From the NCBI GenBank assembly GCA_001004105.1, contig LCQK01000003.1:46805-110804 (forward strand): a stretch of DNA of 64,000 nucleotides, written 5' to 3'. This document shows, piece by piece, positions 3,495 to 55,267 of this stretch. The DNA comes from Candidatus Jorgensenbacteria bacterium GW2011_GWB1_50_10. Its GTDB lineage: Bacteria; Patescibacteriota; Minisyncoccia; UBA6257; GWB1-50-10. The notes beneath the pieces were generated by a model, which was given only the letters and a program-made list of their open reading frames with translations, did no database searches and had not been told where the DNA came from. Both the position numbers and the translations under genes were made by a program. The stretch's first letter is position 1; each line of letters opens with the position of its first letter.

Positions 3495-5085
3495 AAAGCA
3501 GCCGAACCTCATATTCATTACCGGCGGGACGGTTTCCGGCATCGGCAAGGGGATTAGCGTTGCCTCTCTCGCCGCCCTTTTAAAAATGCGGGGCTTGGAG
3601 GTTGTGCCGATTAAGATTGACCCGTATTTGAACCGCGATGCGGGGACGATGAATCCTTACCAGCATGGAGAAGTATTTGTGACCGAGGACGGCGCGGAAA
3701 CGGATTTGGATTTAGGTCACTATGAGCGATTTATTAACATTAATCTGGATGGCCGGTCAAACTTCACGACTGGCAGCGTTTACGAACATGTTATCGGCCT
3801 AGAGCGCCACGGCGATTATTTGGGGAAGACCATTCAGATTATTCCTCACGTGACCGACGAGATTAAAAGGCGGATTGTGAGCGTTTTCCATTCAAACGGC
3901 GCCGATGTGGCGGTGGTGGAAATTGGCGGGACGGTGGGCGACATTGAAGCCGAGCCGTTTTTGGAGGCCGCCCGGCAGATGTTTAGAGAACATGGTCCGA
4001 ACCGCGTTATTTTCATTCACGTGGTCAAAGTTGATTACGTTTTTCCTTCCGACGAGGAAAAAACAAAACCGATTCAGCAGTCAGTGGCGCTTCTGCGCCA
4101 GCGCGGCATTCAGCCGGATTTCTTAATTGTCCGTTCTAAGCGGCCGATTGACTTGGAGAATATTGAGAAAATTTCGCTTTTTACCAACGTTCCGCCGAAA
4201 CACGTTATCCCGGCTGTCGACGTGAGCACTATTTACGAAGTGCCGGTAAATTTCAGGCGGAGCGGCTTTGACGAATTAATCTTGAAGAAATTTGGCCGGC
4301 GATTCGGGAAATCAAACTTCGCCGTCTGGCGCCGGGCGGTAAGCAAGATGACGAGAGCGAAGAAAGTCGTACCCATCGCACTGGTGGGCAAGTACATTGA
4401 GCATGACGACGCCTATCTTTCGGTTGAGGAAGCGGTGGCCCACGCCGCCGCCGCCTCCGGAGTGAAAGTAGATTTGCTTCGGATTGATTCCGAAAGTCCG
4501 GTTTTGCTCAAAAAATTAAGAGAGATGAAAGGTATTATCGTGCCCGGCGGGTTTGGTAAAAGAGGAATTGACGGGAAAATCAGAGCGATTAGATTTGCCC
4601 GCGAGAATAATATTCCCTTTTTGGGATTGTGTCTCGGCTTACAGGTCGCGGTCATTGAGTTTGCCCGAAATGTTTGCCATCTTGGCGGCGCAAACAGCAC
4701 GGAGTTCAACCGCCGGACGCCGCATCCAGTCATTGACATAATGCCTGAGCAGAAAAAAGTGAAAGACAAGGGTGGGACGATGCGCTTGGGCACCTATAAA
4801 GCAACGCTCGCGAAGAATTCCCTGGCGCGCCGCCTTTACGGTACCCCACTTATTTTTGAGAGACACCGCCATCGTTATGAGGTGAATCCCAAATATCACA
4901 GTATCTTAAGAAGGCGAGGTCTGGTTTTATCCGGCTTGAATCTGCCGGACAGGCGGCTCGTCGAATTCATTGAGCTTCCAGAAGCAAAATTTTTCATCGC
5001 CACCCAAGCCCACCCGGAATTCAAATCCAGATTTTTGAAGCCGCACCCGCTTTTCCTGGGTCTCGTCAGGGCGTCCTTAATGTGA
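3472..5085 (+). CDS. pyrG: CTP synthase
   Basis: IFITGGTVSGIGKGI N-terminus and a GATase domain with GLCLGLQ and HRHRYEVN. Confidence 0.95.
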   Translation: MKRSKKSKKQPNLIFITGGTVSGIGKGISVASLAALLKMRGLEVVPIKIDPYLNRDAGTMNPYQHGEVFVTEDGAETDLDLGHYERFININLDGRSNFTTGSVYEHVIGLERHGDYLGKTIQIIPHVTDEIKRRIVSVFHSNGADVAVVEIGGTVGDIEAEPFLEAARQMFREHGPNRVIFIHVVKVDYVFPSDEEKTKPIQQSVALLRQRGIQPDFLIVRSKRPIDLENIEKISLFTNVPPKHVIPAVDVSTIYEVPVNFRRSGFDELILKKFGRRFGKSNFAVWRRAVSKMTRAKKVVPIALVGKYIEHDDAYLSVEEAVAHAAAASGVKVDLLRIDSESPVLLKKLREMKGIIVPGGFGKRGIDGKIRAIRFARENNIPFLGLCLGLQVAVIEFARNVCHLGGANSTEFNRRTPHPVIDIMPEQKKVKDKGGTMRLGTYKATLAKNSLARRLYGTPLIFERHRHRYEVNPKYHSILRRRGLVLSGLNLPDRRLVEFIELPEAKFFIATQAHPEFKSRFLKPHPLFLGLVRASLM

Positions 5086-10513: not shown

Positions 10514-11411
10514 CATGAGAAGTTTACTGGAGATAATCCGGGAAACGGAAAAAGATAAGGTTGCAATAGGCCATTTCAATATTTCCAACCTGGAGCAGTT
10601 AAAGGCGATATCGCATGTCGCGGCGAAACTCAACGTACCGGTCATTATCGGCACATCGGAGGGCGAACGGGACTATATTGGTGTTCATCACGCCGTTGAT
10701 CTCGTCAAAAGTTACAACAAGGAGCACGCAAAAGGAAATTATCGGCTGTTTTTGAACGCCGACCACACCCATACTTTAGAGAACGCGAGGAAAGCGGCTG
10801 AAGTCGGTTATGACGCGATATTATTTGACGGCGGCAAACTGCCCCTTGAAGAAAATATCAGGGCTACGAAAGAAGTCGTAGAAATGGTGAGAAAAATCAA
10901 CAAAAACATCTTAGTTGAAGGTGAGCTGGGCTATATCGGTTCGTCTTCGGAAGTAAGGAAGGAAATTCCGGAAGGGGCGGCGATTAATCCCGGGGATTTG
11001 ACCAGACCGGAGGAAGCAGCGAGGTTCGTTGAAGAAACCGGCGTGGATATGCTTGCGCCGGCGGTGGGGAACATTCACGGCATGTTCGCGAACGCTCCGG
11101 AGCCGCGGCTTGATATAGAACGCATCCGGGAAATCAAGAAAGCGGTTGAAAACCTGCCTGCCGGCAGGCAGGTCCCGCTTGTTTTGCACGGCGCCTCCGG
11201 CAACACCGATGAAGATTTAAGTGTGGCAATCGATGCTGGAATTTCCATAATCCACATTTCCACCGAGCTTCGCGTTGCTTGGCGCAAGGGTTTGGAAGAA
11301 GCTTTGAAGGAGAATCCTGACGAAGTCGCGCCCTACAAGCTGATGCCCGAGGATTTGGCAGAAATGGAGAAAGTGGTGGAGAGAAAATTACGCCTCTTCA
11401 ATAAACTGTAA
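10503..11411 (+). CDS. fba: fructose-bisphosphate aldolase, class II
   Basis: GHFNISN, DHTH and PLVLHGASG motifs. The gene contains an in-frame copy of the 20-bp palindrome (ENLPAGRQVPLVLHG). Confidence 0.9.
   Translation: MKFNMRSLLEIIRETEKDKVAIGHFNISNLEQLKAISHVAAKLNVPVIIGTSEGERDYIGVHHAVDLVKSYNKEHAKGNYRLFLNADHTHTLENARKAAEVGYDAILFDGGKLPLEENIRATKEVVEMVRKINKNILVEGELGYIGSSSEVRKEIPEGAAINPGDLTRPEEAARFVEETGVDMLAPAVGNIHGMFANAPEPRLDIERIREIKKAVENLPAGRQVPLVLHGASGNTDEDLSVAIDAGISIIHISTELRVAWRKGLEEALKENPDEVAPYKLMPEDLAEMEKVVERKLRLFNKL
11153..11172. repeat. 20-bp perfect palindrome CCTGCCTGCCGGCAGGCAGG, copy 1 (inside fba, read as LPAGRQ)
   Basis: Exact 20-mer that equals its own reverse complement. One flanking base on each side (A/T) extends it to 22 bp. 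Confidence 0.95.
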
Positions 11412-11437
11412 GAAGCAAAAGATTAGAAATACGCTTA

Positions 11438-11453
11438 CTATGACATGTCATAG
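11438..11453. repeat. 16-bp perfect palindrome CTATGACATGTCATAG (left copy; 19-bp identity ACTATGACATGTCATAGCG)
   Basis: The identical 19-mer recurs at 11877-11895. The two copies bracket the TrpR-like gene. Confidence 0.9.
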
Positions 11454-11457
11454 CGCG

Positions 11458-11856
11458 TCAATAATGGTGCATGTAGACTTTTCCGTATTTAGTGCGGCGG
11501 TAGTATCTATAGGGTTTCTTTTTAGAAGGGTGACTGCTGTTGTATACTTTCTTTTTCCGCCCCGTTTTGCCTCGTTCCCGGTAGCTCCGATAACCACTCC
11601 CTTCCAGCGCTTTTTTGATACTGCTTACGGTCTGCGGCGAGAGATGGAGTTCCTCGACAATCTGCACGAATTTTTTCCCTGAATTCATGCGGTCTGCTAC
11701 CGCGGCGCGCATAACAAGATTATGACGTTCGTTGGAGGTGGTAAATAGTTCCAAGAGTTCTCTGGATTCTGATATCTTCTTCCAGCACGCTCTTTCCCAT
11801 TCCTTACGCGAAGAGTACTGGTTGGTTGGCGGCAACGATAATAAATTCCTGGTCAT
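11458..11856 (-). CDS. TrpR/YerC/YecD-like HTH protein with basic C-terminal tail
   Basis: The segment LFTTSNERHNLVMRAAVADRMNSGKKFVQIVEELHLSPQTVSSIKKALE resembles the Trp-repressor-like family. The C-terminus is lysine/arginine/tyrosine-rich. Confidence 0.6.
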   Translation of the reverse strand: MTRNLLSLPPTNQYSSRKEWERACWKKISESRELLELFTTSNERHNLVMRAAVADRMNSGKKFVQIVEELHLSPQTVSSIKKALEGSGYRSYRERGKTGRKKKVYNSSHPSKKKPYRYYRRTKYGKVYMHHY

Positions 11857-11877
11857 AAGGTAAGTTTAACATATCAC

Positions 11878-11893
11878 TATGACATGTCATAGC
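11878..11893. repeat. 16-bp perfect palindrome CTATGACATGTCATAG (right copy)
   Basis: Lies 22 bp upstream of the TrpR-like start codon and 52 bp upstream of the DGR target promoter -35 box. Confidence 0.9.
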
Positions 11894-11944
11894 GTTTTTA
11901 CTGGGTAGTCAGTTGTTTTGTTGCTCTATTCTCGCATATAAAAT

Positions 11945-11973
11945 TGACAAGCTTGTATAAATAGGGTATACTT
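11945..11973 (+). promoter_or_regulatory. sigma-70-type promoter of DGR target gene 1
   Basis: TTGACA (11945-11950), a 17-bp spacer, then TATACT (11968-11973). This is about 80 nt upstream of the ATG at 12054. Confidence 0.6.
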
Positions 11974-12053
11974 TAGGGCAGTACAATAATGGTGAGTCTG
12001 CGGGTCTGGTAAATGCCGGACTGGGGGACGAACCACAAAAAGAGAGGTACAAG

Positions 12054-12749
12054 ATGGCGAAAAAGACGGATGAACTGGTGCAGTTTGCGGGCCACTTCCA
12101 GTCGCTCGCGACTGCGGTTTCCCGCAACCTCGAAGAGCGCGGCGTAAACGTTGTTGAGGCAATCGCGGAGGCCGCAAAGCCGCAAGGCGCTCGGGCGGTC
12201 GCGAAGATCGTAGACGCGCTCGCCGAACTCGTTGAAAACGGCAAGCGGGTCGTCGGCGCTCTCAATCTCATCGTGGCCGACATCGCCGTGAAGACCGAAC
12301 TCTTCACAAAAAATTCGTTCTTCGGCGAGGGGAGCCCAGTAAAACTCTACATCTGGGATAACTTCCGGAACTGGGTACTCACGGCTATCCTTGAGAATAT
12401 ACCTGCGTTCCAGGGTATGCTCGTGAAGCACCAACTCACGAAGGGGATGTATGACTCGGAGATTCTCTCCGGACTCGGGCATCCCACGCCGTTCTCACCA
12501 ACCGAGTTCGCGGCTGTCATTCGCGACCTCATCTCCAAGCAATCGAGAGGCGAGGAGGGCCTTCTCCTCACGAACGGCTACGCCAACATCTTCTATGTAC
12601 AGTTGCCTGCCGGCGCAGGCGGGGAAGATGCACGCGTGGTCGCGGTGCGCGTGACCTGGAACGCCGGGGACGACGACTGGCACCTGGACGCCTACGGCTT
12701 GGACGACGACGGGTGGGGTGACGGTGTCTGCGTGTTCTCTCGCAGCTGA
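12054..12749 (+). CDS. DGR target (variable) protein 1, 231 aa, unassigned family
   Basis: GC-rich ORF whose last 37 codons are the VR. It has no signal peptide or TM segment, and an SD-like AGAGAGG lies upstream of the ATG. A paralog lies at 48342..48932. Confidence 0.85.
   Translation: MAKKTDELVQFAGHFQSLATAVSRNLEERGVNVVEAIAEAAKPQGARAVAKIVDALAELVENGKRVVGALNLIVADIAVKTELFTKNSFFGEGSPVKLYIWDNFRNWVLTAILENIPAFQGMLVKHQLTKGMYDSEILSGLGHPTPFSPTEFAAVIRDLISKQSRGEEGLLLTNGYANIFYVQLPAGAGGEDARVVAVRVTWNAGDDDWHLDAYGLDDDGWGDGVCVFSRS
12602..12623. repeat. decayed copy of the 20-bp palindrome (17/20 with a 2-nt insertion) inside target 1, read as LPAGAGG
   Basis: GTTGCCTGCCGGCGCAGGCGGG lies 9 bp upstream of the VR. 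The paralog has a 6-codon shorter segment at this point (PEDGP versus LPAGAGGEDAR). Confidence 0.6.
12632..12743 (+). repeat. DGR variable repeat VR1
   Basis: 112 bp with 99/112 identity to the TR. All 13 differences lie at TR adenines. Confidence 0.9.
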
Positions 12750-12782
12750 TCTCGGATTTTCGGTCTCTTGGCAATAGTAGTG

Positions 12783-12823
12783 CGCCCCGTTCGAGTTCTT
12801 CGGAACTTGGACGGGGCGTTTTT
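12783..12823 (+). terminator. hairpin with UUCG loop plus T5 downstream of VR1 (intrinsic terminator and/or DGR target-recognition hairpin)
   Basis: 16-bp stem (12783-12798 pairs with 12803-12818, two G-U pairs), loop TTCG, then TTTTT. It starts 40 nt after the end of the VR. Confidence 0.7.
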
Positions 12824-12831
12824 GTTATAAT
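12823..12831 (+). promoter_or_regulatory. extended -10 box TGTTATAAT, candidate promoter of the TR-containing RNA
   Basis: A perfect TGnTATAAT sits directly after the terminator and about 170 nt upstream of the TR. I saw no convincing -35 box. Confidence 0.45.
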
Positions 12832-12998
12832 AAAAATGAAATTTTTTGACATCACTGCGGTCAAGGCTTCAGTGGGAAGATTTCAAAAAACAGAAAGGTC
12901 AGCTGGTGTAGGGCGCTAACGGGTGCGAAAGACCCGGCATTAGATGCAACGCTTAGAGGAATCAAAGCGCAGTGGCAAGGGCGGCGCTTTACACGATA

Positions 12999-13110
12999 AC
13001 GCGTGGTCGCGGTGAACGTGAACTGGAACGCCGAGAACGACGACTGGAACCTGAACGCCAACGGCTTGGACGACGACAGGTGGAATGACGGTAACTGCGT
13101 GTTCTCTCGC
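12999..13110 (+). repeat. DGR template repeat (TR)
   Basis: Non-coding and rich in AAC codons in the VR frame (encodes ...VNVNWNAENDDWNLNANGLDDDRWNDGNCVFSR). It is the adenine-bearing partner of VR1. Confidence 0.9.
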
Positions 13111-13125
13111 CGCTTACCTTTTATA

Positions 13126-13470
13126 TCAGTTCTTTGGGAGCTGTTTTAGCCAACCGCCCAGCATTTTTCCAACTTCGTCAACTTTTCCAGAAAGCGCGGC
13201 GTATTTTTTCGTGTCCAGAGATTTGATTTGCCAGGCAATTTGGAGGAAAAATTTTAGTGAGTCAAGTTTAAAAGAGGAATTCCTGATTTTTGCAAACCGT
13301 TCGGCTGGCGTGAGAGGGGCGGCTGAGAAAATTTCTTCGATAATATCCAAGAAAAGCAAATCTACTTTTACGCCGAGAGTATAGCGCGAGGTTTTGGGAA
13401 AATGAGGCGCGAATTCTTGCCAAAGCGTGTAGGCCGCGATTAGTTTCTGAATAATTGGCAGTTCATTCCG
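13126..13470 (-). CDS. avd: Avd-like accessory variability determinant (four-helix-bundle / 23S-IVS protein family); start codon unresolved
   Basis: The reading frame encodes NELPIIQKLIAAYTLWQEFAPHFPKTSRYTLGVKVDLLFLDIIEEIF...KYAALSGKVDEVGKMLGGWLKQ, a typical Avd pattern. There is no in-frame ATG, GTG or TTG upstream of 13359. An ATG at 13519 is out of frame by one base across a G9 tract. Confidence 0.7.
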   Translation of the reverse strand, partial: RNELPIIQKLIAAYTLWQEFAPHFPKTSRYTLGVKVDLLFLDIIEEIFSAAPLTPAERFAKIRNSSFKLDSLKFFLQIAWQIKSLDTKKYAALSGKVDEVGKMLGGWLKQLPKN

Positions 13471-13472
13471 TC

Positions 13473-13481
13473 GGGGGGGGG
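13473..13481. repeat. homopolymeric G9 (C9 on the avd strand) tract
   Basis: Nine consecutive G, 18-26 nt upstream of the RT ATG and inside the 5' region of avd. Loss of one base would fuse the ATG at 13519 to the avd frame. Confidence 0.9.
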
Positions 13482-13498
13482 TTAGAGGACGGGAATTT

Positions 13499-14482
13499 AT
13501 GAAAATTCAATTGAGCCATAAATTCGAAGATATTATTTCACTGGAAAATCTTTTGGAAGCATGGCGAGAATTTTTGCGCGGCAAGAGAAATAAAAGAGAC
13601 GTTCAGGAATTCTCATCGCGTTTAATGGATAACATTCTATTACTTCACAGCGAACTTCGCAATAAAACCTACAAGCACGGGAAGTACGAAGCCTTTAACA
13701 TCTCCGACCCCAAACCGAGAAACATCCACAAAGCCGCCGTCCGCGACCGCCTACTTCATTACGCTATTTACAGGGTTTTATATCCGTTTTTTGATAAGGT
13801 ATTCATCGCCGATTCTTTTTCCTGCCGTTTGGGAAAAGGGACGCACAGAGCCATCAACCGCTTTAGAACTTTTGCTTATAAAGTGAGTAAAAATAATACC
13901 AAAACCTGCTGGGTTTTAAAGTTGGATATTAGGAAATTCTTCGCGAGTATTGACCATGAAATTTTGATAAAAATTCTTGAGGAATACATACCCGACCAAG
14001 ACATTATCTGGTTGCTGAAGAAAGTGATAGAAAGTTTTTATTCGACCGAACCCGGCAAGGGCCTGCCTTTAGGCAATTTAACCTCCCAGCTTTTAGTAAA
14101 TGTTTACATGAACAAGTTTGACCAATTTGTGAAACACAAGTTCAAGGCCAAGTATTACGTGAGATACGCCGATGATTTTGTGATTGTGTCGAAAAACGGA
14201 ATATGGCTTGAAAGTTTAATTCCGAGAATCAGCGAATTTCTAAACAGAGAATTGAAGTTAAAACTTCACGACGATAAGATATTCATTAAAACTTTAGCTT
14301 CGGGAGTAGATTTCCTTGGCTGGGTTCACTTTCCGGATTACCGAGTTCTGCGAACCACGACCAAAAGAAGAATGTTTAAAAGAATCAAAGAACATCCCGC
14401 GCCGGAAACAATAAATTCTTATTTGGGATTATTAAGGCACGGGAACGCTTATAAATTAAAAAGAAAAATTATTGCTGAATAA
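13499..14482 (+). CDS. DGR-type reverse transcriptase
   Basis: 327 aa. The N-terminus reads [20 protein letters not shown]. Motif 4 [20 protein letters not shown] carries the SQ typical of DGR RTs, and the catalytic motif is [11 protein letters not shown]. There is no maturase or endonuclease extension, and the gene is visibly AT-rich. Confidence 0.9.
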
Positions 14483-14498
14483 TTTTTTTTGTGTTTTA

Positions 14499-15242
14499 AT
14501 GGCGTTTATGGAAGCTAGTATTAGCAAGATAATTTTAGAGATTCGGGCGGGCACGGGCGGGGACGAGGCCTCGCTTTTTGCCGGCGATTTGGCGCGGATG
14601 TATCAGAGGTTTGCCGCCCGGCGGGGCTGGAAATTCTCGACGCTCGATGCGAGCGAGTCCGGCGCGCGCGGCTATAAGACGTTCATCGCGGAGATCGGCG
14701 GCCCGGGCGTCTACGAGGCATTGAAGAACGAATCCGGCGTGCACCGGGTGCAGAGAGTGCCGGATACCGAACGGGGCGGCCGGGTGCATACCTCAACCGT
14801 ATCGGTCGCGGTTTTACCCGTAGTGGAAACCAAGGATTTTCAAATTAAAGAAAGCGATTTGGAAGTGACTTTCTCCCGCGCCGGCGGTCCCGGCGGCCAG
14901 AACGTGAACAAAGTGGAAACTGCGGTTCGAATCACCCATAAACCCACCGGCGTTGTCGTAGGTTCCAGGGAAGAACGGAGCCAGCACGCCAATCGCGAGA
15001 AAGCGATGGAGGTCTTGCGGGCCAAGCTTTACGAGGCGCAGAAAGAACAGCAAGTGGGGTCGGTTGCGGAGTTGCGGAGAGGGCAGATCGGCTCGGCCGG
15101 ACGGGCGGAGAAGGTAAGGACATATAATTTTCCGCAGGATAGAATTACAGATCACAGAGTAAGTAAAAAATGGAGTAATATTGAAAAGATATTAGAAGGT
15201 AATCTTGACCCAATCATACAGGCATTTTTGAAAGTCAATTAA
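14499..15242 (+). CDS. prfA: class I peptide chain release factor (RF1-like, PxT-type) lacking the N-terminal domain
   Basis: [27 protein letters not shown] (P-x-T), GGPGGQNVN (GGQ) and [14 protein letters not shown] motifs. RF1 homologs have about 100 more N-terminal residues. The start at ATG 14499 is inferred; the ORF track uses TTG 14472. Confidence 0.8.
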
Positions 15243-15248
15243 AAAATC

Positions 15249-15268
15249 CCTGCCTGCCGGCAGGCAGG
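15249..15268. repeat. 20-bp palindrome, copy 2 (junction between prfA stop and the displaced prfA 3' remnant)
   Basis: Exact CCTGCCTGCCGGCAGGCAGG, 6 nt after the prfA stop codon. Confidence 0.95.
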
Positions 15269-15379
15269 CGCACCTATAATTTTCCGCAGGACAGGATAAC
15301 CGACCACCGTCAGGGCAAAAAGGTTTCAAATATTCTGAAAGTTCTCGACGGCGATTTGGACAAACTAACCGGCCGTTAA
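15269..15379 (+). pseudogene. displaced original 3' end of prfA (36 codons plus stop, out of frame with prfA)
   Basis: Encodes [36 protein letters not shown]. It shares the 17-mer TATAATTTTCCGCAGGA with 15123-15139 and is GC-rich like the prfA core. Confidence 0.75.
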
Positions 15380-16870
15380 AATTTCTATATCCTTTTGGAA
15401 TTGCTGGGCTTTCACGACCACCGGTTCGCCGTAAGCCCAGCGGTAGTAATACCACCGGCCACCGGCGTAGTATCTTGCCGCGGCGCAGCGTTCGGCAAGG
15501 ACTTGGGCATCGGCGATGTTTCTGTTTTCGCTCACGTAATTCCGGCAAGCGCTGGAATTCAGGGCGTCTTTGAGATACAAGGAAGTCGCAACGAAAGCGT
15601 CGGCGTTTGACCAGGGATTGGAAGGAGTTTGGCCGGTGATTTTCCCAATATAATCCTTGCTTTGGTTATACTCCCAGGAACTGCCGTTTTTCTCCCAACC
15701 GCCGTAGATGGCCCAGGTTGAGGGAATGAATTGGGCCGGGCCCATGGCGCCGCCGTAGGCGCCGTCTCTGTTGGCACAGGAAACCTTCGCCACGGTTGAA
15801 TTCGGGTCAATGCCGAGCTTGGAAAGAATGGCGAGGAAAATCGGAACGTCGCGGGTGGGGTGCATGGCGCCCTGGTAGCTGCAGCGGCCGACGTTTTTCC
15901 CCAGAAGAGATTCTTGCTGAAGAATGGCGAGAAGAAAAGCGGCCCGGACCCCGGTTGCGCCTTCGGCAAGGCGGGCGTATTTATAGGCCTCTTCAAAAGT
16001 GAGTTCGCCGCCTCCCAAAAGACGGAAAATTCTGCTTCTTATTTGAGCGGCAGTGGCTTGGGTTTCTTTCAGGATTTTTTGGTATTCGGATTCTTTGCCT
16101 TTGGTTACGGTCAGAAGCTGATTTTTTTCCGCTTGGGTCGTCGCGACGCTCTTTTTTTGCGATTCCTGATAATTCTTGAGATTTTCCACGTCGGATTTTT
16201 CCGCGGCGAGCTCCTGTTTTTGCTCAAGCAATTCCACCCGAAGGGCGACAACTTCGTTTAAGGCCGTCCGGATGTTGGACTGAACCAGGGTTATGTTGTT
16301 GACGTCACCGAAGAAATCCGAAAGATTGGCATTGGCCAGCAACACCTCGATCAAGCTTTGGGCGTCGGCTTCATAGAGGTCGCGGACGCCTCTCGCAAGG
16401 GCCGTTTTATGGCCGTCAATTCTGTTTTCGGTAACGTTTATGTTCTTTTGAGTGCTCGTTATTTCGTCGTCCAATTTCTGGAGATTCAGGTTGACCGCTT
16501 TAATTTGGAGGTTCAACTGGCTGATTTTGGCGTTCAGGGATTTTATTTCGTTAGTGAGGGTTTTGCCCTGTTTTTGATATTCGGCAACCGTACTTTGATG
16601 TTCAAGGATTTGGCGCTCCAATTCGGCAAGTTCGTTTTCAAGTTTCTCCCGTTCTTCCTGGCTGGTCGCGCCGTTTTCCGTGCCCGTCATCTCGGCTGCC
16701 TGGGTCGGAGTGTTCAGTTTGGTTCCGAGAAGAAGCCCCGAAAAAGCGAGGAGAACCAAAACTCCTCCTACGAATTTGATTGATTTGGTAAGAGGGATCC
16801 GGATAGCGGTCGAATAGGAGAGATTGAGACGTCTTTTACGGCTGGCCTTAATATCGTAGATTTTGCGCAT
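15365..16870 (-). CDS. membrane-anchored coiled-coil protein with C-terminal lytic-transglycosylase-like domain
   Basis: N-terminal TM segment and a long heptad-like region ([16 protein letters not shown]...). The C-terminal part has [12 protein letters not shown] and [13 protein letters not shown], which are SLT/MltB-like motifs. Confidence 0.7.
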
Positions 16871-16979: not shown

Positions 16980-17669
16980 TTATTTTTTCTTCTCTTCTTC
17001 CTTGGGCGGTGTTTCTTTTTTCTCCGGCTCCGCTGCCTGCCTGCCGGTAGGCATGGCTTTCGCTTCGGTTTCGGCCGGAGCGGCCGGTGTTTCGGCTATC
17101 GGAGGCGGCGCAACAACTTCCTCCTTCACTTTTTCGGTTACGGTCGCAATCACGGTTTCCTCCGGCGCGAGAATTTTTACTTCGGAAGGCGCGCGCAGGT
17201 CGCTAACGTGGATGCTGTCGCCCATTTTCTCCAGCTTGCCCAAATCAACCTGAAAGGAGTGGGGGATTTTGTCGGGTAGGGATTTGACTTCAATTTCGTG
17301 CAGCACCCGGACGATCACCAAACCGGCTTTTTCCGCCGGAGCGGTGCCTGTGAATTCCACCGGCACTTTTGTTTCAATCGCCTCATCCATTTTAATTTGA
17401 TGGAAATTCACCGAAAGCGTTTTTCTGGTCAGGGGATGTTCCTGAACCTCGGAAATTAAGATTGGAATTTTTCCGCCCTTCTCGTTTATCAAATAAACGA
17501 CGGTGTGGCTGCCGGCTTTGCGGTAGACTTTAACGAAATCGTTTTCCGAAACGGCAAGGTGCTGGTTTAGAACGCCGCTCCCGAAAAGTTCGGCCGGAAC
17601 CAAACCCGCCCTCCGGAGGGATTTCACTTTTTTCCCCAAAATTTCCCTTGTTTTGACTGCGAGTTCCAT
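16980..17669 (-). CDS. rplY: 50S ribosomal protein L25/Ctc with low-complexity C-terminal tail
   Basis: GKKVKSLRRAGLVPAELFG N-terminus and the two-domain Ctc form. The Glu/Lys/Pro-rich tail contains a decayed palindrome copy. Confidence 0.85.
   Translation of the reverse strand: MELAVKTREILGKKVKSLRRAGLVPAELFGSGVLNQHLAVSENDFVKVYRKAGSHTVVYLINEKGGKIPILISEVQEHPLTRKTLSVNFHQIKMDEAIETKVPVEFTGTAPAEKAGLVIVRVLHEIEVKSLPDKIPHSFQVDLGKLEKMGDSIHVSDLRAPSEVKILAPEETVIATVTEKVKEEVVAPPPIAETPAAPAETEAKAMPTGRQAAEPEKKETPPKEEEKKK
17036..17055. repeat. decayed copy (18/20) of the 20-bp palindrome inside the rplY tail (MPTGRQA)
   Basis: CCTGCCTGCCGGTAGGCATG, with two substitutions relative to the consensus. Confidence 0.7.
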
Positions 17670-17912: not shown

Positions 17913-17932
17913 CCTGCCTGCCGGCAGGCAGG
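17913..17932. repeat. 20-bp palindrome, copy 3 (12 nt upstream of rpmE start codon)
   Basis: Exact 20-mer. On the rpmE strand its 3' end together with the next base reads AGGGAG, 9 nt before the ATG. Confidence 0.95.
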
Positions 17933-18165: not shown

Positions 18166-19651
<1,486 letters not shown>

Positions 19652-26434: not shown

Positions 26435-27700
26435 ATGAGAAGGTTCTGGCGCGATATAAAAGGACAAAGTTTGATTGAAGTTTTAATCGGTTTGGCGATT
26501 GGTGCCGTTTTAATCGGCGCTGCGAGTTTGGGCGTTACTTTCATGCTTCGCTCTAGCGCCGCCAGTCAGAATGTTCAGATTGGAACGGGTCTTGCCCAAG
26601 ATTTGGTGGACAAGGCTCGTTCCGTATCGGCCGCCAAGTGGCAGGATATTTACCACCTCACCAAAGGAACGAGCACATCTTATTTTGTAAATGCTTTTGG
26701 CACGCAGCTTGTTGTTGTAGAAGGTCAGGAAGGCGTTATCAGCAATGAAAATACGAATGGTTTGGTCGGTTACTGGAAGTTTGATGAGGCGACGAGTACG
26801 GCGACTACTACGACCTTCGACGCTTCCGGAAAGTCCAACCACGGCACTCTCACGAGCGGCGTTTCAAGAGCTACCTCAACTTGTAAAGTTAGTTATTGTT
26901 TGGATTTTGATGGAGTGGATGATTATGTTGATTCCGGAAGCGGTTCAAGTTTGGATATTACTCAAAATGTAACACTCGTGTCGTGGGTTAAGTTGGATAC
27001 TTATACCTCGGGCGGCACTAACACTGACAGGGCAAGCATTGTGCAGAAGACGGGGCAATATTATATGACAGTGAATTCAGCAAACGGAACACTCGACGCC
27101 TTCTTTGGTGGGGTCACTGGTAGTCATACGCCTTCAAATTCTACAGTTTCATTGAATCAGTGGATGCACACCGCAATCACTTATGATGGTGCAAATATAA
27201 AATGGTATATAGACGGTGTTTTAGACAAAACATCGGCCGCGACCGGTACCATTACTAGTGATCCCCGAAGCGTTCGTATCGGCGGGGAACCGGCTTTTGG
27301 TCGTTTTCTGAACGGTTCCATTGACGAAGTCCGCGTCTACAACCGCGCTCTTTCCGCCGACGAAATCCAGCGGCTTTGGAATTCCGTGCCTTTCACGCAT
27401 TACTTTAACGTTGGAAACGTAAACCGCGATACGAACGGCAATATTGTTTCCTCCGGCGGAAATGAAGATCCTTCAACCCAAAAAATCACGGTGACTGTGC
27501 AGTGGCCGGGGAGCGGCAGTAATGTCGGTCAGATTCAAATTGTTGATTATTTAACCCGCTGGCAGAACCAAGTGTTTCAGCAAAGCGATTGGCTGGGTGG
27601 TTCTGGCCAAATAGGCCCGATTACCTTACCGAATTCTAAATACGACAGCGCGACGAGCGTTTCCAACCCCGCCGGTTCAATCAGAATTCAAGGACTATAA
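26435..27700 (+). CDS. prepilin-type pseudopilin with LamG domain
   Basis: GQSLIEVLIGLAIGAVLIG N-terminus, then GLVGYWKFDEATS...FDGVDDY and EVRVYNRALSADEI. Confidence 0.75.
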   Translation: MRRFWRDIKGQSLIEVLIGLAIGAVLIGAASLGVTFMLRSSAASQNVQIGTGLAQDLVDKARSVSAAKWQDIYHLTKGTSTSYFVNAFGTQLVVVEGQEGVISNENTNGLVGYWKFDEATSTATTTTFDASGKSNHGTLTSGVSRATSTCKVSYCLDFDGVDDYVDSGSGSSLDITQNVTLVSWVKLDTYTSGGTNTDRASIVQKTGQYYMTVNSANGTLDAFFGGVTGSHTPSNSTVSLNQWMHTAITYDGANIKWYIDGVLDKTSAATGTITSDPRSVRIGGEPAFGRFLNGSIDEVRVYNRALSADEIQRLWNSVPFTHYFNVGNVNRDTNGNIVSSGGNEDPSTQKITVTVQWPGSGSNVGQIQIVDYLTRWQNQVFQQSDWLGGSGQIGPITLPNSKYDSATSVSNPAGSIRIQGL

Positions 27701-46251: not shown

Positions 46252-48228
46252 ATGGGTCAATTTCAAATCACAAAAACATTTCAGCCGGACGGTGACCAAC
46301 CAAAAGCGATAAAGGCGCTTGTTGAAGGGCTAAATTATGGTTACGGAAACCAGACGCTTTTGGGCGTGACCGGTTCGGGCAAAACCTTTACGGTTGCAAA
46401 TGTCATCGAAAAAATCGGCAAGCCCACACTCTACATTGCTCACAACAAGACCCTGGCGGCCCAGCTCTGCAATGAGCTCCGGGAGTTTTTTCCGGGAAAT
46501 TCTGTCCATTATTTCGTCTCCTACTACGACTACTATCAGCCGGAGGCCTACATGCCCATAACTGACACTTATATCGGCAAGGAAGCGATGATTAACGACG
46601 AGATAGACAAGTTGCGCCACGCGGCGACAACTGCGCTTTTGACGCGCAATGACGTGATTGTGGTCGCGTCCGTCTCCTGCATTTACGGCCTTGGCGCGCC
46701 CGAGGTTTACGCCGAGAATATCTTCCATTTCAAAGCCGGCGACAAAGTGGACCGTTCCAAATTCGTGCGCAAGCTCGTGGAATTGCAGTTTAAGCGGACG
46801 AGCGCCGACCTGAAACGCGGCACTTTCCGGTTGCGGGGCGACAATTGGGAAATCATGCCGCCGGATCGGGAAGTGATTTACAATCTGGAATTGGAGAAAG
46901 GAAAAATAAAAACCATTTACGAAATTGACCCGGTAAAAGGTTTTCAAAAGGAAAAAACACCCACCCTTTCTGAAATTTACATTGCCCCCGCTAGACATTT
47001 CATCACACCTTTACCGGAGCGCGAGCGGGCGATTAAAGCGATTGAAGCGGAACTTGCAGAGCGGCTGAAATATTTTGAAAGGGAGGGAAAACTGCTTGAG
47101 GCCGAGCGGCTGGAACGCCGGACAAGAGGGGACTTAGCCATGATTCGGGAAATCGGCTACTGCAACGGCATTGAGAATTATTCGCGCCATCTCTCCGGCC
47201 GCCGAGCTGGTGAGCCGCCGGAGACGCTGCTTGATTATTTTCCAAAGGACTTCTTGACCGTGATTGACGAATCGCATGTTACTGTGCCTCAACTTCACGG
47301 TATGTACGAGGGTGATGCCTCGCGGAAGAAAACGCTCATTGAATTCGGTTTCCGGCTGCCTTCCGCCGCCGACAATCGGCCGCTTATGTTTCCGGAATTC
47401 GAAAGCAAAGTGGGGCAGGTAATTTACACTTCGGCGACCCCGGGCCCGTACGAGAGGAGAAAAAGCAATCAGATCGTAGAGCAAATCATCCGGCCGACCG
47501 GTTTGGTTGACCCGGAAATAGTTATTCGACCGGCTCGAGGCCAGGTTGACGATTTGATTCCGAGAATTAAAGAAAGAGTAGACGTGAAAGAGCGCGTTTT
47601 AGTGACCACGCTTACCAAGCGAATGGCCGAAGATTTAAGTTCTTATTTGGAAGAGCAGGGCATTAAAGTGACGTATCTCCACAGCGACGTTAAAACTTTG
47701 GATAGAATCAGGATTTTGACGAATTTGAGAAGAGGTAATTTCGACGTTCTGGTCGGCGTGAATCTGCTCCGCGAAGGACTGGACCTGCCGGAAGTTTCGC
47801 TTGTCGCGATTTTGGACGCGGATAAGGAGGGGTTTCTGCGTTCGGAAACCTCGCTTATCCAGACCATTGGCCGGGCCTCCCGCAATGTCAGTGGCCAAGT
47901 TTTGATTTATGCCGATAACATTACCGGTTCGGTAAAGCGCGCCGTGGATGAAACTGAACGCCGCCGCAAAATCCAGATTGAATATAACTTGCGTCACGGC
48001 ATCACGCCGAAAACAATCGTGAAGAAAATCACCGACATCGTGCCGGTCGAGGAAATCCTGAATTTGGAAATGAAACCCTTGCCGCGCTCTAAAGCGGAAA
48101 TTAAGAAAATAATCGCCGGAAAAGAAAAAGAAATGAGAGAAGCAGCAAGTAGACTTGATTTTGAACTCGCGGCAGTTTTAAGAGATGAAATTAAAGCTTT
48201 ATCTAAGAAGGCGGGGAAGCAGTTTTGA
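46252..48228 (+). CDS. uvrB: excinuclease ABC subunit B
   Basis: [20 protein letters not shown] start, [10 protein letters not shown] Walker A, and a C-terminal UVR domain [15 protein letters not shown]. Confidence 0.95.
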
Positions 48229-48341: not shown

Positions 48342-48932
48342 ATGATGAAGGGAACGAACGGACTCGAGTGGCTTGCGGACCGCTGGCAGTCGGTTGCGAC
48401 TGCAGTTCCCCGCCGCTTTGAGAATCGTGGAGTTAGCGGCGGGGAGGTAATTGCCGCCGTAACCAAGCCCCAGACCAGGAGTATTGTGGTCCAGACCGAG
48501 CCCTTTGCTAAGGACTCGTTCTTTGGGGAGAGCGGTCCCGCGGAGCTCTGCATTTGGGACAACTTCCGAACCCAGGTGCTATCAGCAGTTTCCGAGACCG
48601 TGCCCGCGTTTCGAGGCACGCTCACGAGAACTGAGCTTGAGGAGCACATGGGGGACTCCGAGATTTTCGCCAACGGGACATCCCGGCCGCTCCTCTCGCC
48701 GGACGATTTTGTTGCGGTCGTCCGTGACCTCATCTCCCGCCAGCCGAGAGGTGAGAGGGGAATCCTTCTCACAAACGGGGATGCCAACATCTTCCATGTG
48801 CAGCCGGAGGATGGACCTGTGGTTGCGGTGCGTGGGCGCTGGCGCGTTGGTCTCGGCGGTTGGAGCCTGCGCGCGTATGGCCGGGACGACGTCAGATGGC
48901 TCAAAGGCCACTGCGTGTTCTCCCGCGGCTGA
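48342..48932 (+). CDS. DGR target-family paralog 2 (196 aa) with diverged VR-like C-terminus
   Basis: The start at ATG 48342 follows AAGGAGAGG, and [22 protein letters not shown] aligns with the MAKKTDELVQFAGHFQSLATAV start of target 1. Shared blocks include IWDNFR, PAF.G, VIRDLIS.Q.RGE.G.LLTNG.ANIF.VQ and the C-terminal CVFSR. Confidence 0.8.
48819..48926 (+). repeat. VR-like repeat (VR2), diverged from the TR at both adenine and non-adenine positions
   Basis: Aligns codon-for-codon with TR 13003-13110. By hand count there are about 19 mismatches at TR adenines and about 17 elsewhere. The conserved ends are GTGGT.GCGGTG and CTGCGTGTTCTC.CGC. Confidence 0.6.
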
Positions 48933-48965
48933 CCCATCTACCGCAGTTCTCGCAAAGTAGCACAG

Positions 48966-51588: not shown

Positions 51589-52814
51589 AAAAACTTCACG
51601 CCAAAATGCCAGATTCGCCGGGCGTCTACTTAATGAAAAACGCTCGCGGCCGGATTCTTTATATCGGCAAGGCGGCAAATTTAAAAAGGCGGGTTTCCAG
51701 TTATTTTTTGCGTCCCGCACGCCTGCCTGCCGGCAGGCAGGATTCGCGAATTGAAAAAATGGTGAGCGAGGTGCGCAAGATTGATTACAAAAAAACCGAC
51801 ACTGCTTTGGAAGCACTAATTTTGGAGGCGACTCTTATTAAAAAACACGAACCGCCCTATAACGTCAGAGAAAAAGACGACAAGAGCTTCCTTTACGTGG
51901 AAATAACGAAAGATAAATTCCCGCGAGTGCTTTTGGTGCGCGGCCGTGCCTACCGGCAGGCAGGCAAAAGCCGGGCGGGAGGGGATAGATTTGGACCGTT
52001 TACTTCTGCTTCAAGTGCGCGGGAGGCGCTCCGCATCATCCGCAAAATTTTTCCGTTCAGCGTCCATCCGGCGGATAAAATCGGCAAATTCAAGAAACCC
52101 TGTTTTGACTACGAAATTGGTCTTTGTCCGGGTACTTGCGCCGGTCTTATAGATAAGACCGATTATCTGAAGAACGTCAGAAACATCAAACTGCTTTTCC
52201 AAGGCAAGAAAGCGGCCATATTGAGGACGCTAAAACGGGAAATGGAAGCGGCGAGCAAGCGGCTGGACTTCGAAAAAGCCGCCAAATTACGGGGCCGGAT
52301 TTTCGCGCTGGAGCACGTGCAGGACGTGGCGCTCATCAAGAGCGAGGAAGACAGCGGTACGGAAAACAAGGCAAGAATTGAAGGATACGACATTTCCGAT
52401 ATTTCCGGGACATCGGCCGTGGGAGCGATGGTTGTTTTTCGCGGCGGCAGACCGGCACCGAATGAATACCGGAAGTTCAAAATCGGCACGGTTTTTAAAC
52501 CGAACGATACTGCAATGTTGAAAGAAGTGATTGGCCGGCGTTTGAACCATCGGGAATGGCCGCTGCCCGATTTATTCCTGATTGACGGCGGCAAGCCGCA
52601 GGTGAACGCCGCAAAAAAGATTCTCAGAGATTCCGGTTTCGTGATTCCGGTCGTGGGCATCGCCAAGGGCGCGAAACGAAAGAAAAACGAATTCATTGGT
52701 TCTATACCCTACAACCTATCACCTATAACCTTGATTAAGGTTCGCAACGAAGCCCACCGTTTCGCCCAAAGTTACCACAAAAGGTTAAGGAAAATAATCT
52801 CACTAGGTTTGTAA
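51585..52814 (+). CDS. uvrC: excinuclease ABC subunit C (short form, 409 aa)
   Basis: GIY-YIG N-terminus (GVYLMKNARGRILYIGKAANLKRRVSSYF), a UVR domain (DFEKAAKLRGRIFALE) and an RNase H-like endonuclease region. It carries one perfect and one decayed palindrome copy in-frame. I did not see a C-terminal (HhH)2 region. Confidence 0.88.
   Translation: MKKLHAKMPDSPGVYLMKNARGRILYIGKAANLKRRVSSYFLRPARLPAGRQDSRIEKMVSEVRKIDYKKTDTALEALILEATLIKKHEPPYNVREKDDKSFLYVEITKDKFPRVLLVRGRAYRQAGKSRAGGDRFGPFTSASSAREALRIIRKIFPFSVHPADKIGKFKKPCFDYEIGLCPGTCAGLIDKTDYLKNVRNIKLLFQGKKAAILRTLKREMEAASKRLDFEKAAKLRGRIFALEHVQDVALIKSEEDSGTENKARIEGYDISDISGTSAVGAMVVFRGGRPAPNEYRKFKIGTVFKPNDTAMLKEVIGRRLNHREWPLPDLFLIDGGKPQVNAAKKILRDSGFVIPVVGIAKGAKRKKNEFIGSIPYNLSPITLIKVRNEAHRFAQSYHKRLRKIISLGL
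51722..51741. repeat. 20-bp palindrome, copy 4 (inside uvrC, RLPAGRQD)
   Basis: Exact 20-mer within a loop of the GIY-YIG domain. Confidence 0.95.
51945..51964. repeat. decayed palindrome copy (18/20) inside uvrC (RAYRQAGK)
   Basis: CGTGCCTACCGGCAGGCAGG. Confidence 0.7.
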
Positions 52815-53503: not shown

Positions 53504-55267
53504 ATGTCAGAAACGAGAATTTGCCAGAATTGCAAGCAACAATTCACGATTGAGCCGGACGATTTCGCGTTTTATAAAAAGATAAGCGTCCCGCCACCGA
53601 CGTGGTGCCCGGAGTGCAGGTTAGTGAGAAGGTTAATTGTTCGTAATGAACGGAGTTTGTATAGAAGAATCTGTGATCTTTGTGGAAAAGAGAAAATAAT
53701 GATGTTTTATCCTCAAAGTCCTTTCAAGGTATATTGCTACGAATGTTGGTTTGGCGATAACTGGAATCCAATGGGGTATGGGAAAGAATATGACTTTTCA
53801 CAGCCCTTTTTCGAACAGTTTAGTGATTTGCTCCATGTGGTACCGAGGCCGGGGATTCTAAAACAAGGATTCGCTATTGAGAGTGAATACACCAACCGAG
53901 TCAGCGAAATTAGAAATTGTTATCTTATTTTTGGCTCAACAGCTAGCGAAAACTGTTTTTACGGTTCGTGGGTAAATGATTCTAAAGAATGCGTTGACTG
54001 TTACAACCTCGGCAAATGCGAAAGATGTTATGACTGCACCGATTGTGTCGGTTGCTATAACCTTCAGTACTCTCGTGACTGCCATAGTTGCAGTAATTCT
54101 TATTTTCTTTTGAATTGCCGCAACTGCGAGAGTTGCTTTGGTTGCACGAATCTCCGCAATAAAAGCTACTGTGTTTTTAATAAACAATACGGCAAGGAGG
54201 AATATCAAAAACTACTCGAGGAACACAATTTGAAAAGCTCAGCCGCTATCAAAAGACTCCAGTCCCGGTTCATTTCGGAGCGTTCCAAGCATATTGTGCC
54301 GTCAATAATCCAACATCACAGTACGGATGTAAGCGGTAACTGGATTGAAGAATCCAAGAATGTTCATTACAGCTTCAACTGCCGAAATGTCGAGGATGGT
54401 AAGTACGTACTGGCGGCAGTAATTGCAAAAGATGTAATGGATTATGCTCATTTCGGACGCGGCGTTGAACGTATTTATGATTCAATCAACATTGGCCGCC
54501 AAGCCTCATCCGTCTTTTTTAGCAATGAAAGCTGGGACCAATCTTCAAATTTGCAGTATTGCATGAATTGCCGAGGTTCACAGAACCTTTTCGGGTGCAT
54601 CGGAGTTCGTAACAAAAGTTACTGTATCTTGAACAGGGAATATACCAAAGAAGAATACGAGAAGCTGGTTCCCCGCATTATTGAGCACATGAATACTATG
54701 CCCTACGCCGACAAGAAAGATAGGGTATACAAGTACGGCGAATTTTTCCCGCCGGAAATAACGCCATTCGCTTATAACGAGTCCCTCTCCCAAGAATTTT
54801 TTCCTCTAACAAAAGAAAGAGCGTCAGAACTCGGGTACCGCTGGAAAGATGAAGAGAATCGGAGCTACAAGATAACTGTAAAAAATAACGAAATTCCTGA
54901 TACTATTCGACTTGTTTCCGACGCGATACTCGATGATGTCATTGGCTGCGAACATGGTGGAAAATGCAACGAACAGTGCACGACGGCTTTTAAAATTGTT
55001 CCTCAAGAGCTTAATTTTTATAGACAATTTAATATTCCCCTTCCAAATCTTTGTCCCAACTGCCGTCATTATCAGAGATTAAAACAAAGAAATCCCCTAA
55101 AGCTTTGGCACAGAAAATGTATGTGTGATTACCAGGTTTATAAAAATACGGTGAAGCACGTTCATCATCCGGAAGGAAAGTGCCCGAACGAATTTAAAAC
55201 GTCCTACGCCCCCGAGAGGCCGGAAATCGTCTACTGCGAGCAGTGTTATAATTTCGAGGTAGTATGA
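53504..55267 (+). CDS. cysteine-rich protein with N- and C-terminal zinc-ribbon-like modules and internal Cys-repeat region
   Basis: CQNCKQQFTIEPDDFAFYKKISVPPPTWCPECR, repeated C..C..C.NL..S..C units (residues about 150-215), and a C-terminal CPNCRHYQRLK...CEQCY. A TATAAT box at 53490-53495 lies 8 nt before the ATG. Confidence 0.6.
   Translation: MSETRICQNCKQQFTIEPDDFAFYKKISVPPPTWCPECRLVRRLIVRNERSLYRRICDLCGKEKIMMFYPQSPFKVYCYECWFGDNWNPMGYGKEYDFSQPFFEQFSDLLHVVPRPGILKQGFAIESEYTNRVSEIRNCYLIFGSTASENCFYGSWVNDSKECVDCYNLGKCERCYDCTDCVGCYNLQYSRDCHSCSNSYFLLNCRNCESCFGCTNLRNKSYCVFNKQYGKEEYQKLLEEHNLKSSAAIKRLQSRFISERSKHIVPSIIQHHSTDVSGNWIEESKNVHYSFNCRNVEDGKYVLAAVIAKDVMDYAHFGRGVERIYDSINIGRQASSVFFSNESWDQSSNLQYCMNCRGSQNLFGCIGVRNKSYCILNREYTKEEYEKLVPRIIEHMNTMPYADKKDRVYKYGEFFPPEITPFAYNESLSQEFFPLTKERASELGYRWKDEENRSYKITVKNNEIPDTIRLVSDAILDDVIGCEHGGKCNEQCTTAFKIVPQELNFYRQFNIPLPNLCPNCRHYQRLKQRNPLKLWHRKCMCDYQVYKNTVKHVHHPEGKCPNEFKTSYAPERPEIVYCEQCYNFEVV

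Follow-up and report, generated by a model that had tools for sequence, protein, structure and literature searches.

In the CdiA-CT/Rhs polymorphic toxins, a new C-terminal module recombines into the gene at a conserved motif and the old module becomes an untranslated orphan downstream. Homology-facilitated illegitimate recombination (HFIR) is known from laboratory selections, usually with a deletion in the recipient and 3-10 bp of microhomology at the joint. Among dispersed small repeats, Rickettsia palindromic elements (RPEs) are 100-150 nt long, and repetitive extragenic palindromes (REPs) are 20-40 nt long, imperfect and extragenic. HFIR has been documented in several transformable bacteria (PMC6382021). 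In Escherichia coli K-12 the cryptic prophage e14 (and phage 21) integrates into icd, leaving the icdC pseudogene (PMC13626634). Here we describe the prfA locus, which encodes release factor 1 (RF1), in a stretch of 64,000 nt from a groundwater bacterium, Candidatus Jorgensenbacteria bacterium GW2011_GWB1_50_10 (LCQK01000003.1, assembly GCA_001004105.1). This stretch is called the window, and all coordinates are relative to it. The locus is a recombination scar, not a system. The gene is very probably a mosaic, in which 152 bp from another, AT-rich member of the same short-RF1 group of Patescibacteria were inserted exactly before the Arg codon of the RTYNFPQ motif. Events of this kind are known, and the locus adds a new example that is unusual in its small size, in affecting an essential gene and in having one end defined by a hairpin. 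Contigs and stretches of other assemblies and relatives are labelled L followed by a number, and homologous proteins P followed by a number.

Structure of the prfA locus

The functional prfA gene (14499-15242, plus strand) encodes an RF1 of 247 amino acids with the Pfam PCRF and RF-1 domains, which aligns to positions 105-339 of the 347 in the NCBIfam prfA model. Its native part, the core (14499-15116, plus strand), is mostly closer to the relative L121 than to the AT-rich relative L123. The core continues into a surrogate, foreign-looking end of 41 codons and a TAA stop (15117-15242, plus strand; stop at 15240-15242), the peptide of which matches the family consensus. A spacer, AAAATC (15243-15248, plus strand), and a perfect 20-bp palindrome, CCTGCCTGCCGGCAGGCAGG (15249-15268), come next, so that the order at the 3' end of the block is prfA tail, TAAAAAATC, palindrome. 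Surrogate end, spacer and palindrome make up the 152-bp insertion (15117-15268, plus strand), whose right junction is the palindrome's last base. From the prfA stop it is only 26 bp to the displaced native 3' end, a pseudogene remnant of 36 codons and a TAA (15269-15379, plus strand), which is out of frame with prfA because it lies 152 nt downstream of the first tail. The convergent gene, predicted to encode a coiled-coil or lytic-transglycosylase-like protein (15365-16870, minus strand), overlaps the remnant with its last 15 bp.

The two gene ends share an exact 17-mer, TATAATTTTCCGCAGGA, coding for YNFPQD, at 15123-15139 and, inside the remnant, at 15275-15291 (both plus strand; period 152). 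Self-comparison placed this 17-mer within a 36-nt repeat that is 83% identical between the copies. The protein similarity across the two flanks of the palindrome scored 128, with a maximum of 60 at 150 random positions. A scan of the window for other gene-end duplicates found none, and Rfam had no family match at the locus. An earlier note, made from the letters alone, had described the AT-rich end, the 6-nt gap, the palindrome, the out-of-frame copy, the 17-mer repeat and the 15-bp overlap; all were recovered at the same coordinates.

The same structure was found over 15060-15420 in four contigs from different assemblies: the 295-kb NCBI contig LCPI01000003, LCPO01000005 from a second NCBI metagenome-assembled genome (MAG), an ENA re-assembly made with MEGAHIT at k=127, and a JGI contig. 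Three of these are base-for-base identical to the window. LCPI01000003 (the sibling genome L001) departs from it in this interval solely at two single-nucleotide polymorphisms (SNPs) in the remnant. An identical RF1 protein (100%) is encoded in Candidatus Jorgensenbacteria GW2011_GWA1_48_13, and it was found in 13 contigs and under three NCBI accessions. These findings bear on whether an assembler fused the prfA alleles of two co-occurring populations. The two tails do differ in composition, and the junctions adjoin a conserved 17-mer and a palindrome, features that can mislead assemblers. However, the sequence recurs in all four contigs, a 17-nt identity is unable to bridge de Bruijn graphs at k=127, the open reading frame (ORF) is intact, and palindromes elsewhere stand in frame. 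Judged from assembled contigs, an assembly error or chimera is thus very unlikely, and we give it hardly any credence.

Which gene end is native

Comparison with relatives indicates which of the two ends belonged to the gene. In nucleotide identity to L121, the closest uninterrupted relative, the remnant stands at 83.3%, the core at 75.8% and the AT-rich tail at 57.4%. The remnant has 23 of its 36 codons identical to those of the L121 tail, and 24 of 29 residues of its peptide match the tail of P0051, the protein encoded on that contig. In L121 the uninterrupted junction reads GAG AAA ATC/CGC ACC TAT AAT TTT CCG (the slash marks the position of the joint), which is the predicted form of an empty site. 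Removing 15117-15268 from the window gives GAG AAG GTA/CGC ACC TAT AAT TTT CCG and thereby restores the L121 arrangement; the corresponding empty-site allele would read ...GAGAAGGTA joined directly to CGCACCTATAATTTTCC. Both L121 and L122 have the uninterrupted junction with fba directly upstream. When similarity to L121 and to the AT-rich L123 was ranked in windows of codons, the ranking switched at about codon 205, where the G+C content of third codon positions (GC3) also collapses. The AT-rich tail is 73% identical in nucleotides to the tail of L123, and an unusual Val preceding RTYNFPQ is common to the surrogate tail and L123/P0024.

The surroundings agree with this assignment. The order pfkB, hypothetical gene, fba and prfA, followed by the convergent transglycosylase-like gene, L25 and L31, is kept in L006, L008 and L123 and partly in others. 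The adjacency of prfA and the convergent transglycosylase-like gene is found in L006, L007, L008, L010, L013, L014 and L123. This synteny is ancestral, and since the order of the two genes is conserved in relatives, the remnant occupies the place of the native gene end. Over 11.8 kb compared with the sibling L001, the only isolated SNPs (15346 and 15364) both lie in the 111-nt remnant, which indicates relaxed constraint, as for freshly disabled sequence. From these comparisons, the downstream copy (15269-15379) is the native prfA end and the AT-rich tail is foreign. The proposal that a 152-bp block with a surrogate gene end had been inserted, keeping the ORF intact and leaving the native end behind, is borne out by the L121 identities, the L121 junction, the synteny and the recurrence of the structure in four contigs, and the comparison with the prfA loci of relatives that the earlier note called for came out in its favor (83.3% against 57.4%).

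Apart from these SNPs, the comparison with L001 showed no differences in the 11.8 kb except a cluster at the fba 3' end (11348-11365), where 18 nt contain five substitutions and one 2-nt indel, and a 2-nt indel at 8498, at the start of the aligned stretch. The fba cluster may have arisen by recombination over a short patch, or L001 may have a local frameshift there.

Base composition sets the three segments apart. GC3 is 0.73 in the core (14547-15116), 0.26 in the first tail (15117-15242) and 0.54 in the remnant (15269-15379), with a mean of 0.565 (sd 0.063) for the ORFs of the window. Among all 42-codon windows in 51 genes of the window, only 0.2% have a GC3 of 0.262 or less. The difference between core and tail is 0.46 here, whereas in 63 relatives it averages -0.01 (sd 0.09, maximum 0.18), so that this contrast lies about 5 sd outside them. 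In one respect the earlier description has to be corrected: it called the downstream copy GC-rich like the prfA core, but the GC3 of the remnant is that of the genome average and not that of the core.

The same figures bear on the idea that the native 3' end was duplicated locally in tandem and that the copies then diverged. Such an origin would fit two adjacent, equally oriented copies that repeat at a period of 152 nt. The copies, however, are only 61-66% identical in nucleotides, while sibling genomes differ by less than 0.1%. Moreover, it is the translated copy that shifted to a GC3 of 0.26, whereas the untranslated one has kept 0.54 and its 83% identity to L121, the opposite of what drift after duplication would produce. 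We regard this explanation as effectively refuted.

Three other 42-codon patches with a GC3 of about 0.24 occur in the window (48079-48228, 54980-55110 and 26846-26990). Two of the low-GC3 patches are at or near gene 3' ends, those of uvrB and of the ORF 53504-55267; no displaced remnant lies downstream of either.

Junctions and origin of the inserted segment

The true junctions, GGTA/AGGA on the left and CAGG/CGCA on the right, have no sequence in common. The left joint is seamless, in frame and inside homeologous sequence, beyond which the sequence is of the donor type. At the right joint, palindrome/CGCACC, only 2 of the 10 nt that precede the joint agree with the native upstream sequence; there is no microhomology, and no recipient DNA is detectably deleted. 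The exact 17-mer might be taken for the place of exchange. Its first copy, however, is preceded by the donor-type codons AGG ACA and its second by CGC ACC, native in type and as in L121. A crossover within the 17-mer would have put CGC ACC before copy 1 and AGG ACA before copy 2, the reverse of what is observed, and judged by these flanking codons the 17-mer is not the crossover core. The codons TAT AAT TTT CCG are common in the family and the same 17-mer codons occur in L121 and L007, so that the identity of the two copies reflects a conserved motif.

These junctions also weigh on the idea that the block is what remains of a site-specific integrative element of the e14 type, which carried a surrogate prfA 3' end and later lost its body by deletion. 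The architecture is that of e14 at icd, with an intact gene using an element-borne end and a native C-terminal pseudogene downstream (PMC13626634); such an element would explain why a foreign prfA end was at hand, and the endpoint of the later deletion could have been promoted by the palindrome. On the other side, the sole identity between the copies is the 17-mer, whose flanking codons have the wrong configuration for a crossover, and the junctions lack common sequence. The copies are 26 bp apart, and no integrase or recombinase was recognized among the long ORFs (at least 100 amino acids) of the 64-kb window, mostly read by eye. Among 80 prfA loci of other species, a comparison limited by flank length and sampling, no second RTYNFP copy was found within 6 kb; close relatives keep the synteny intact, and no phage or plasmid matched. 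Two events would be needed, the second with a very particular outcome. We therefore consider an integrative origin unlikely. The earlier note had likened the locus to integration events that bring a replacement gene end: the analogy of a displaced gene end stands, but the 17-mer is no core, an element body is lacking and no integrase is apparent.

The explanation that we prefer overall, with a probability of about 0.6, is one-sided homeologous recombination with DNA of an unsampled AT-rich relative and an illegitimate joint at the base of the hairpin. The recipient would have taken up DNA of the relative, which would have paired with it where the prfA core ends in conserved sequence; this would have produced the seamless left joint. 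The other end of the incoming DNA would have been attached by an illegitimate joint at the recipient's codon before RTYNFPQ. The donor end corresponds to the last base of the palindrome, and a stable 10-bp foldback would halt exonuclease trimming there; in this way a hairpin in the donor may have set the end of the fragment. In the donor, the A-run and palindrome, with or without a T-run, probably formed a bidirectional terminator between convergent prfA and transglycosylase-like genes, as is the case for the layout of relatives. As the gene now stands, its protein ends with the foreign tail, and the native tail follows directly behind the palindrome, untranslated and decaying. Because the imported piece brought a complete gene end, the essential gene would never have been broken. 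The insertion would also have separated two genes that formerly overlapped by 15 bp and placed a terminator-like hairpin behind the convergent gene. This single-event course accounts for all of the observations.

How the segment was joined can be stated less firmly; HFIR, or equivalently one-ended homeologous break repair followed by end joining, is a proposal for which we see about even odds. The pair of joints expected of HFIR is present, with one seamless, in-frame homeologous junction and one junction without homology. Type IV pilus genes are present in the window; competence machinery is found widely among the Patescibacteria, and one group, the Saccharibacteria, has been shown to undergo natural transformation (PMC11665869).

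Several points weigh against one-sided recombination with a relative's DNA. The donor was not found: the best matches to the tail reached 73% of nucleotides (L123) and 26 of 34 amino acids, searches of viral contigs, phages and plasmids with the block gave nothing relevant, and a protein search with the 41-residue tail yielded nothing but short fragments, among them some of error-prone assemblies (L005), and no donor. Donor and recipient are only about 70% identical in the core, a low value for RecA pairing, the competence of this organism is only assumed, and the left crossover point is not locatable. The empty-site allele was not found in metagenome contigs or by exact look-up of the uninterrupted protein, a weak negative as the metagenome collection apparently lacks this population; a degenerate pattern bound to match the window's own JGI contig (L004, sample 3300025012) gave 0 hits, so the metagenome negatives carry no weight. 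Finally, the same exact palindrome occurs four more times in the 64 kb of this genome. Given these other copies in the recipient, the palindrome could equally have been a resident that landed at the junction or created it.

The dispersed palindrome

Besides the copy at prfA, exact copies of the palindrome are found in the window at 11153-11172, 17913-17932, 51722-51741 and 63521-63540. There are near copies with 2 mismatches at 17036-17055 and 51945-51964 and a decayed copy at 12603-12622. The 5 exact and 2 near copies compare with 0 in 100 shuffles. The repeat is a discrete 20-mer, with no flanking sequence common to the copies. In-frame copies lie inside ORFs, namely fba, uvrC, the tail of L25 and the ORF 62106-63587, and 4 of 5 coding copies read LPAGRQ (MPTGRQ in the near copy). 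The copy in fba is a 21-nt, 7-codon in-frame insertion relative to 8 homologs and the closest relative, L122. In IMG/VR the exact palindrome was found in 35 stretches (L086-L120) with GC contents of 0.38-0.68, while two composition-matched control palindromes gave 0 hits. The prfA loci of 80 relatives all lack it. Phage-like contigs carry it too, among other places inside tRNA genes. One of the IMG/VR copies forms the long variable arm of a tRNA-Met (L110), another lies within a tRNA-like D-loop (L117), and three have exact direct repeats (7, 8 and 14 nt) on either side. Another stretch, L095, is a cyanobacterial-looking contig from the record of an isolate genome. A literature search found no paper containing the palindrome sequence. 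We rejected a sequencing or adaptor artefact as its source: copies are in frame in ORFs, occupy the same positions in sibling MAGs and an independent re-assembly, and occur in the isolate record.

These properties invite the view that the palindrome itself is mobile or recombinogenic and moved here from a homeologous prfA locus, dragging the adjacent 132 nt along by a process resembling 3' transduction or by break repair templated on a foreign locus with the palindrome; an essential gene could have tolerated such an event only if a complete gene end came along. The palindrome's last base is exactly where the junction falls, and elsewhere the palindrome behaves as an inserted unit, as in fba; its exact copies are spread over stretches of very different GC content, where control palindromes are missing, and three of them have direct repeats. 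Yet no gene-fragment duplication flanks any of the approximately 50 other copies examined in the window and IMG/VR, so the link between palindrome and recombination is a single case and this account rests on one instance. No transposase, HUH or RAYT-like gene was apparent in the window. We know of no mechanism for a mobile element of 20 nt, and a movement driven by the palindrome appears improbable. The wider claim, that it is an ultra-small mobile or recombinogenic element that crosses phyla and carries adjacent sequence, the prfA block being the first 'gene-end transduction' to be caught, we hold to be more doubtful still; were it true, the palindrome would bring a complete foreign gene end with it, and this would be why the essential gene survived. 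The earlier note's tie between palindrome and recombination junction holds for position, exactly at the right junction, and finds no parallel at the other copies. The family is unexplained in its origin and spread and is a more curious find than the prfA scar.

At the prfA junction the palindrome may have a further role. On the minus strand, the palindrome followed by GATTTTTT scored as a terminator in a terminator scan (8-bp stem with 6 GC pairs, 4-nt loop, T-run). The putative intrinsic terminator of the convergent gene spans 15239-15268 (minus strand) and consists of the palindrome stem and then GATTTTTTAA, a match to the consensus only, in which the spacer and the TAA stop supply the T-run. 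Hairpins with flanking A or T runs stand right behind the prfA stop in the relatives L008 and L012. A different hairpin repeat found across phyla (GTCATTCTGAGCGAAG..GAAGGATCTC and its complement) directly follows the prfA stop in L010 (about 4740-4830) and L029, and flanks the 20-bp palindrome in L095 (6160-6460). Convergent gene ends seem to be places where small palindromic repeats collect.

The short release factor and neighboring features

The RF1 encoded here lacks the N-terminal domain 1 (model positions 1-104), as do its 120 closest homologs (P0001-P0120, Patescibacteria). Nearly all of these have 240-267 amino acids (one has 277 and one 291), and they share the same N-terminus. The tripeptide for stop-codon recognition (PxT motif) is PDT. 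A quick literature search found no paper describing an RF1 without domain 1 in this group.

A diversity-generating retroelement (DGR) lies between fba and prfA (11412-14498) and is absent in L006, L008 and L121/L122. It comprises a helix-turn-helix (HTH) gene, a target gene (12054-12749) with its variable repeat (VR, 12632-12771), a template repeat (TR, 12999-13138), a minus-strand Avd-like ORF and a reverse transcriptase gene (13499-14482). The first 13 consecutive mismatches between TR and VR are all at TR adenines. The scan for gene-end duplicates revealed a second target paralog (46% amino acid identity) at 48342-48950, with a VR-like end at 48819-48950, between uvrB and uvrA. Truncation of prfA at its 5' end by the adjacent DGR was considered and rejected: the loss of domain 1 is shared by the closest homologs and is thus a family trait and not retroelement damage, the N-terminus is also shared, and AT-rich first 16 codons are typical of the family. 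Adenine mutagenesis by the DGR was likewise rejected as the source of the differences between block and remnant, which affect all four bases, unlike those of the TR/VR pair.

Two perfect 19-nt copies of ACTATGACATGTCATAGCG (11437-11455 and 11876-11894), each with a 16-nt palindrome, bracket a gene for a small Trp-repressor-like HTH protein (11458-11856, minus strand); they resemble operator sites or the ends of an element. The 16S rRNA gene (18166-19651) is complete, and the next gene after it encodes a response regulator instead of 23S rRNA, the rRNA genes being unlinked within the window. Upstream of the 16S gene are a copy of the palindrome and a strong TTGACA/TATAAT pair.

Meaning of the locus

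The locus offers a clean natural case in which an essential, highly conserved gene has taken up foreign DNA and at no time lost its function: a stop codon came with the import, and the former end was left out of frame. Read as a mosaic, it shows homeologous exchange below the size of a gene (about 150 bp) between lineages of Patescibacteria. Since the remnant is already gathering the only isolated SNPs of its neighborhood, the locus is also a dated fossil. For annotation it is a warning that mosaic gene ends and orphan gene tails occur in these reduced genomes. If the position of the palindrome at the junction were causal, an unrecognized way of moving short segments of DNA would be indicated.

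Comparison with known systems

Of the known cases, the nearest is e14 at icd. There as at prfA, a housekeeping gene is completed by a horizontally acquired homeologous end (the last 50 or so codons), the native C-terminal fragment is kept downstream, and the ORF is unbroken (PMC13626634). In the e14 case, however, a 15-kb prophage with its integrase lies between the two copies, recombination took place in an identical core and excision is possible. At prfA there are 26 bp between the copies, no recombinase is apparent, there is no core and the junctions share nothing. With prophage, core and recombinase, the three defining features, all lacking, the locus does not belong to the e14 class.

There is also a parallel with the polymorphic toxins. 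The CdiA-CT/Rhs toxin/immunity cassettes diversify and are often arranged in arrays, whereas at prfA one event has changed a translation factor; no gene is associated with it, and nothing points to diversifying selection. The palindrome resembles RPEs and REPs as a dispersed dyad repeat tolerated in frame in housekeeping ORFs, with many near-identical copies scattered, some of them in frame. Unlike those elements, it is a perfect 20-mer, identical across contigs of 38-68% GC, and no RAYT-like gene was seen in the window; the conserved flanking tetranucleotide of the REP/RAYT system is missing, as the copies share no flanks.

The locus also resembles HFIR as described in Acinetobacter baylyi, Streptococcus pneumoniae and Pseudomonas stutzeri, in which one end is anchored by homologous or homeologous sequence and the other is joined without homology (PMC6382021). 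The prfA event differs in being natural, in affecting an essential gene, in having no detectable deletion or microhomology and in having its joint at the base of a perfect hairpin. As far as its sequence can tell, the locus fits the junction features by which HFIR is defined.

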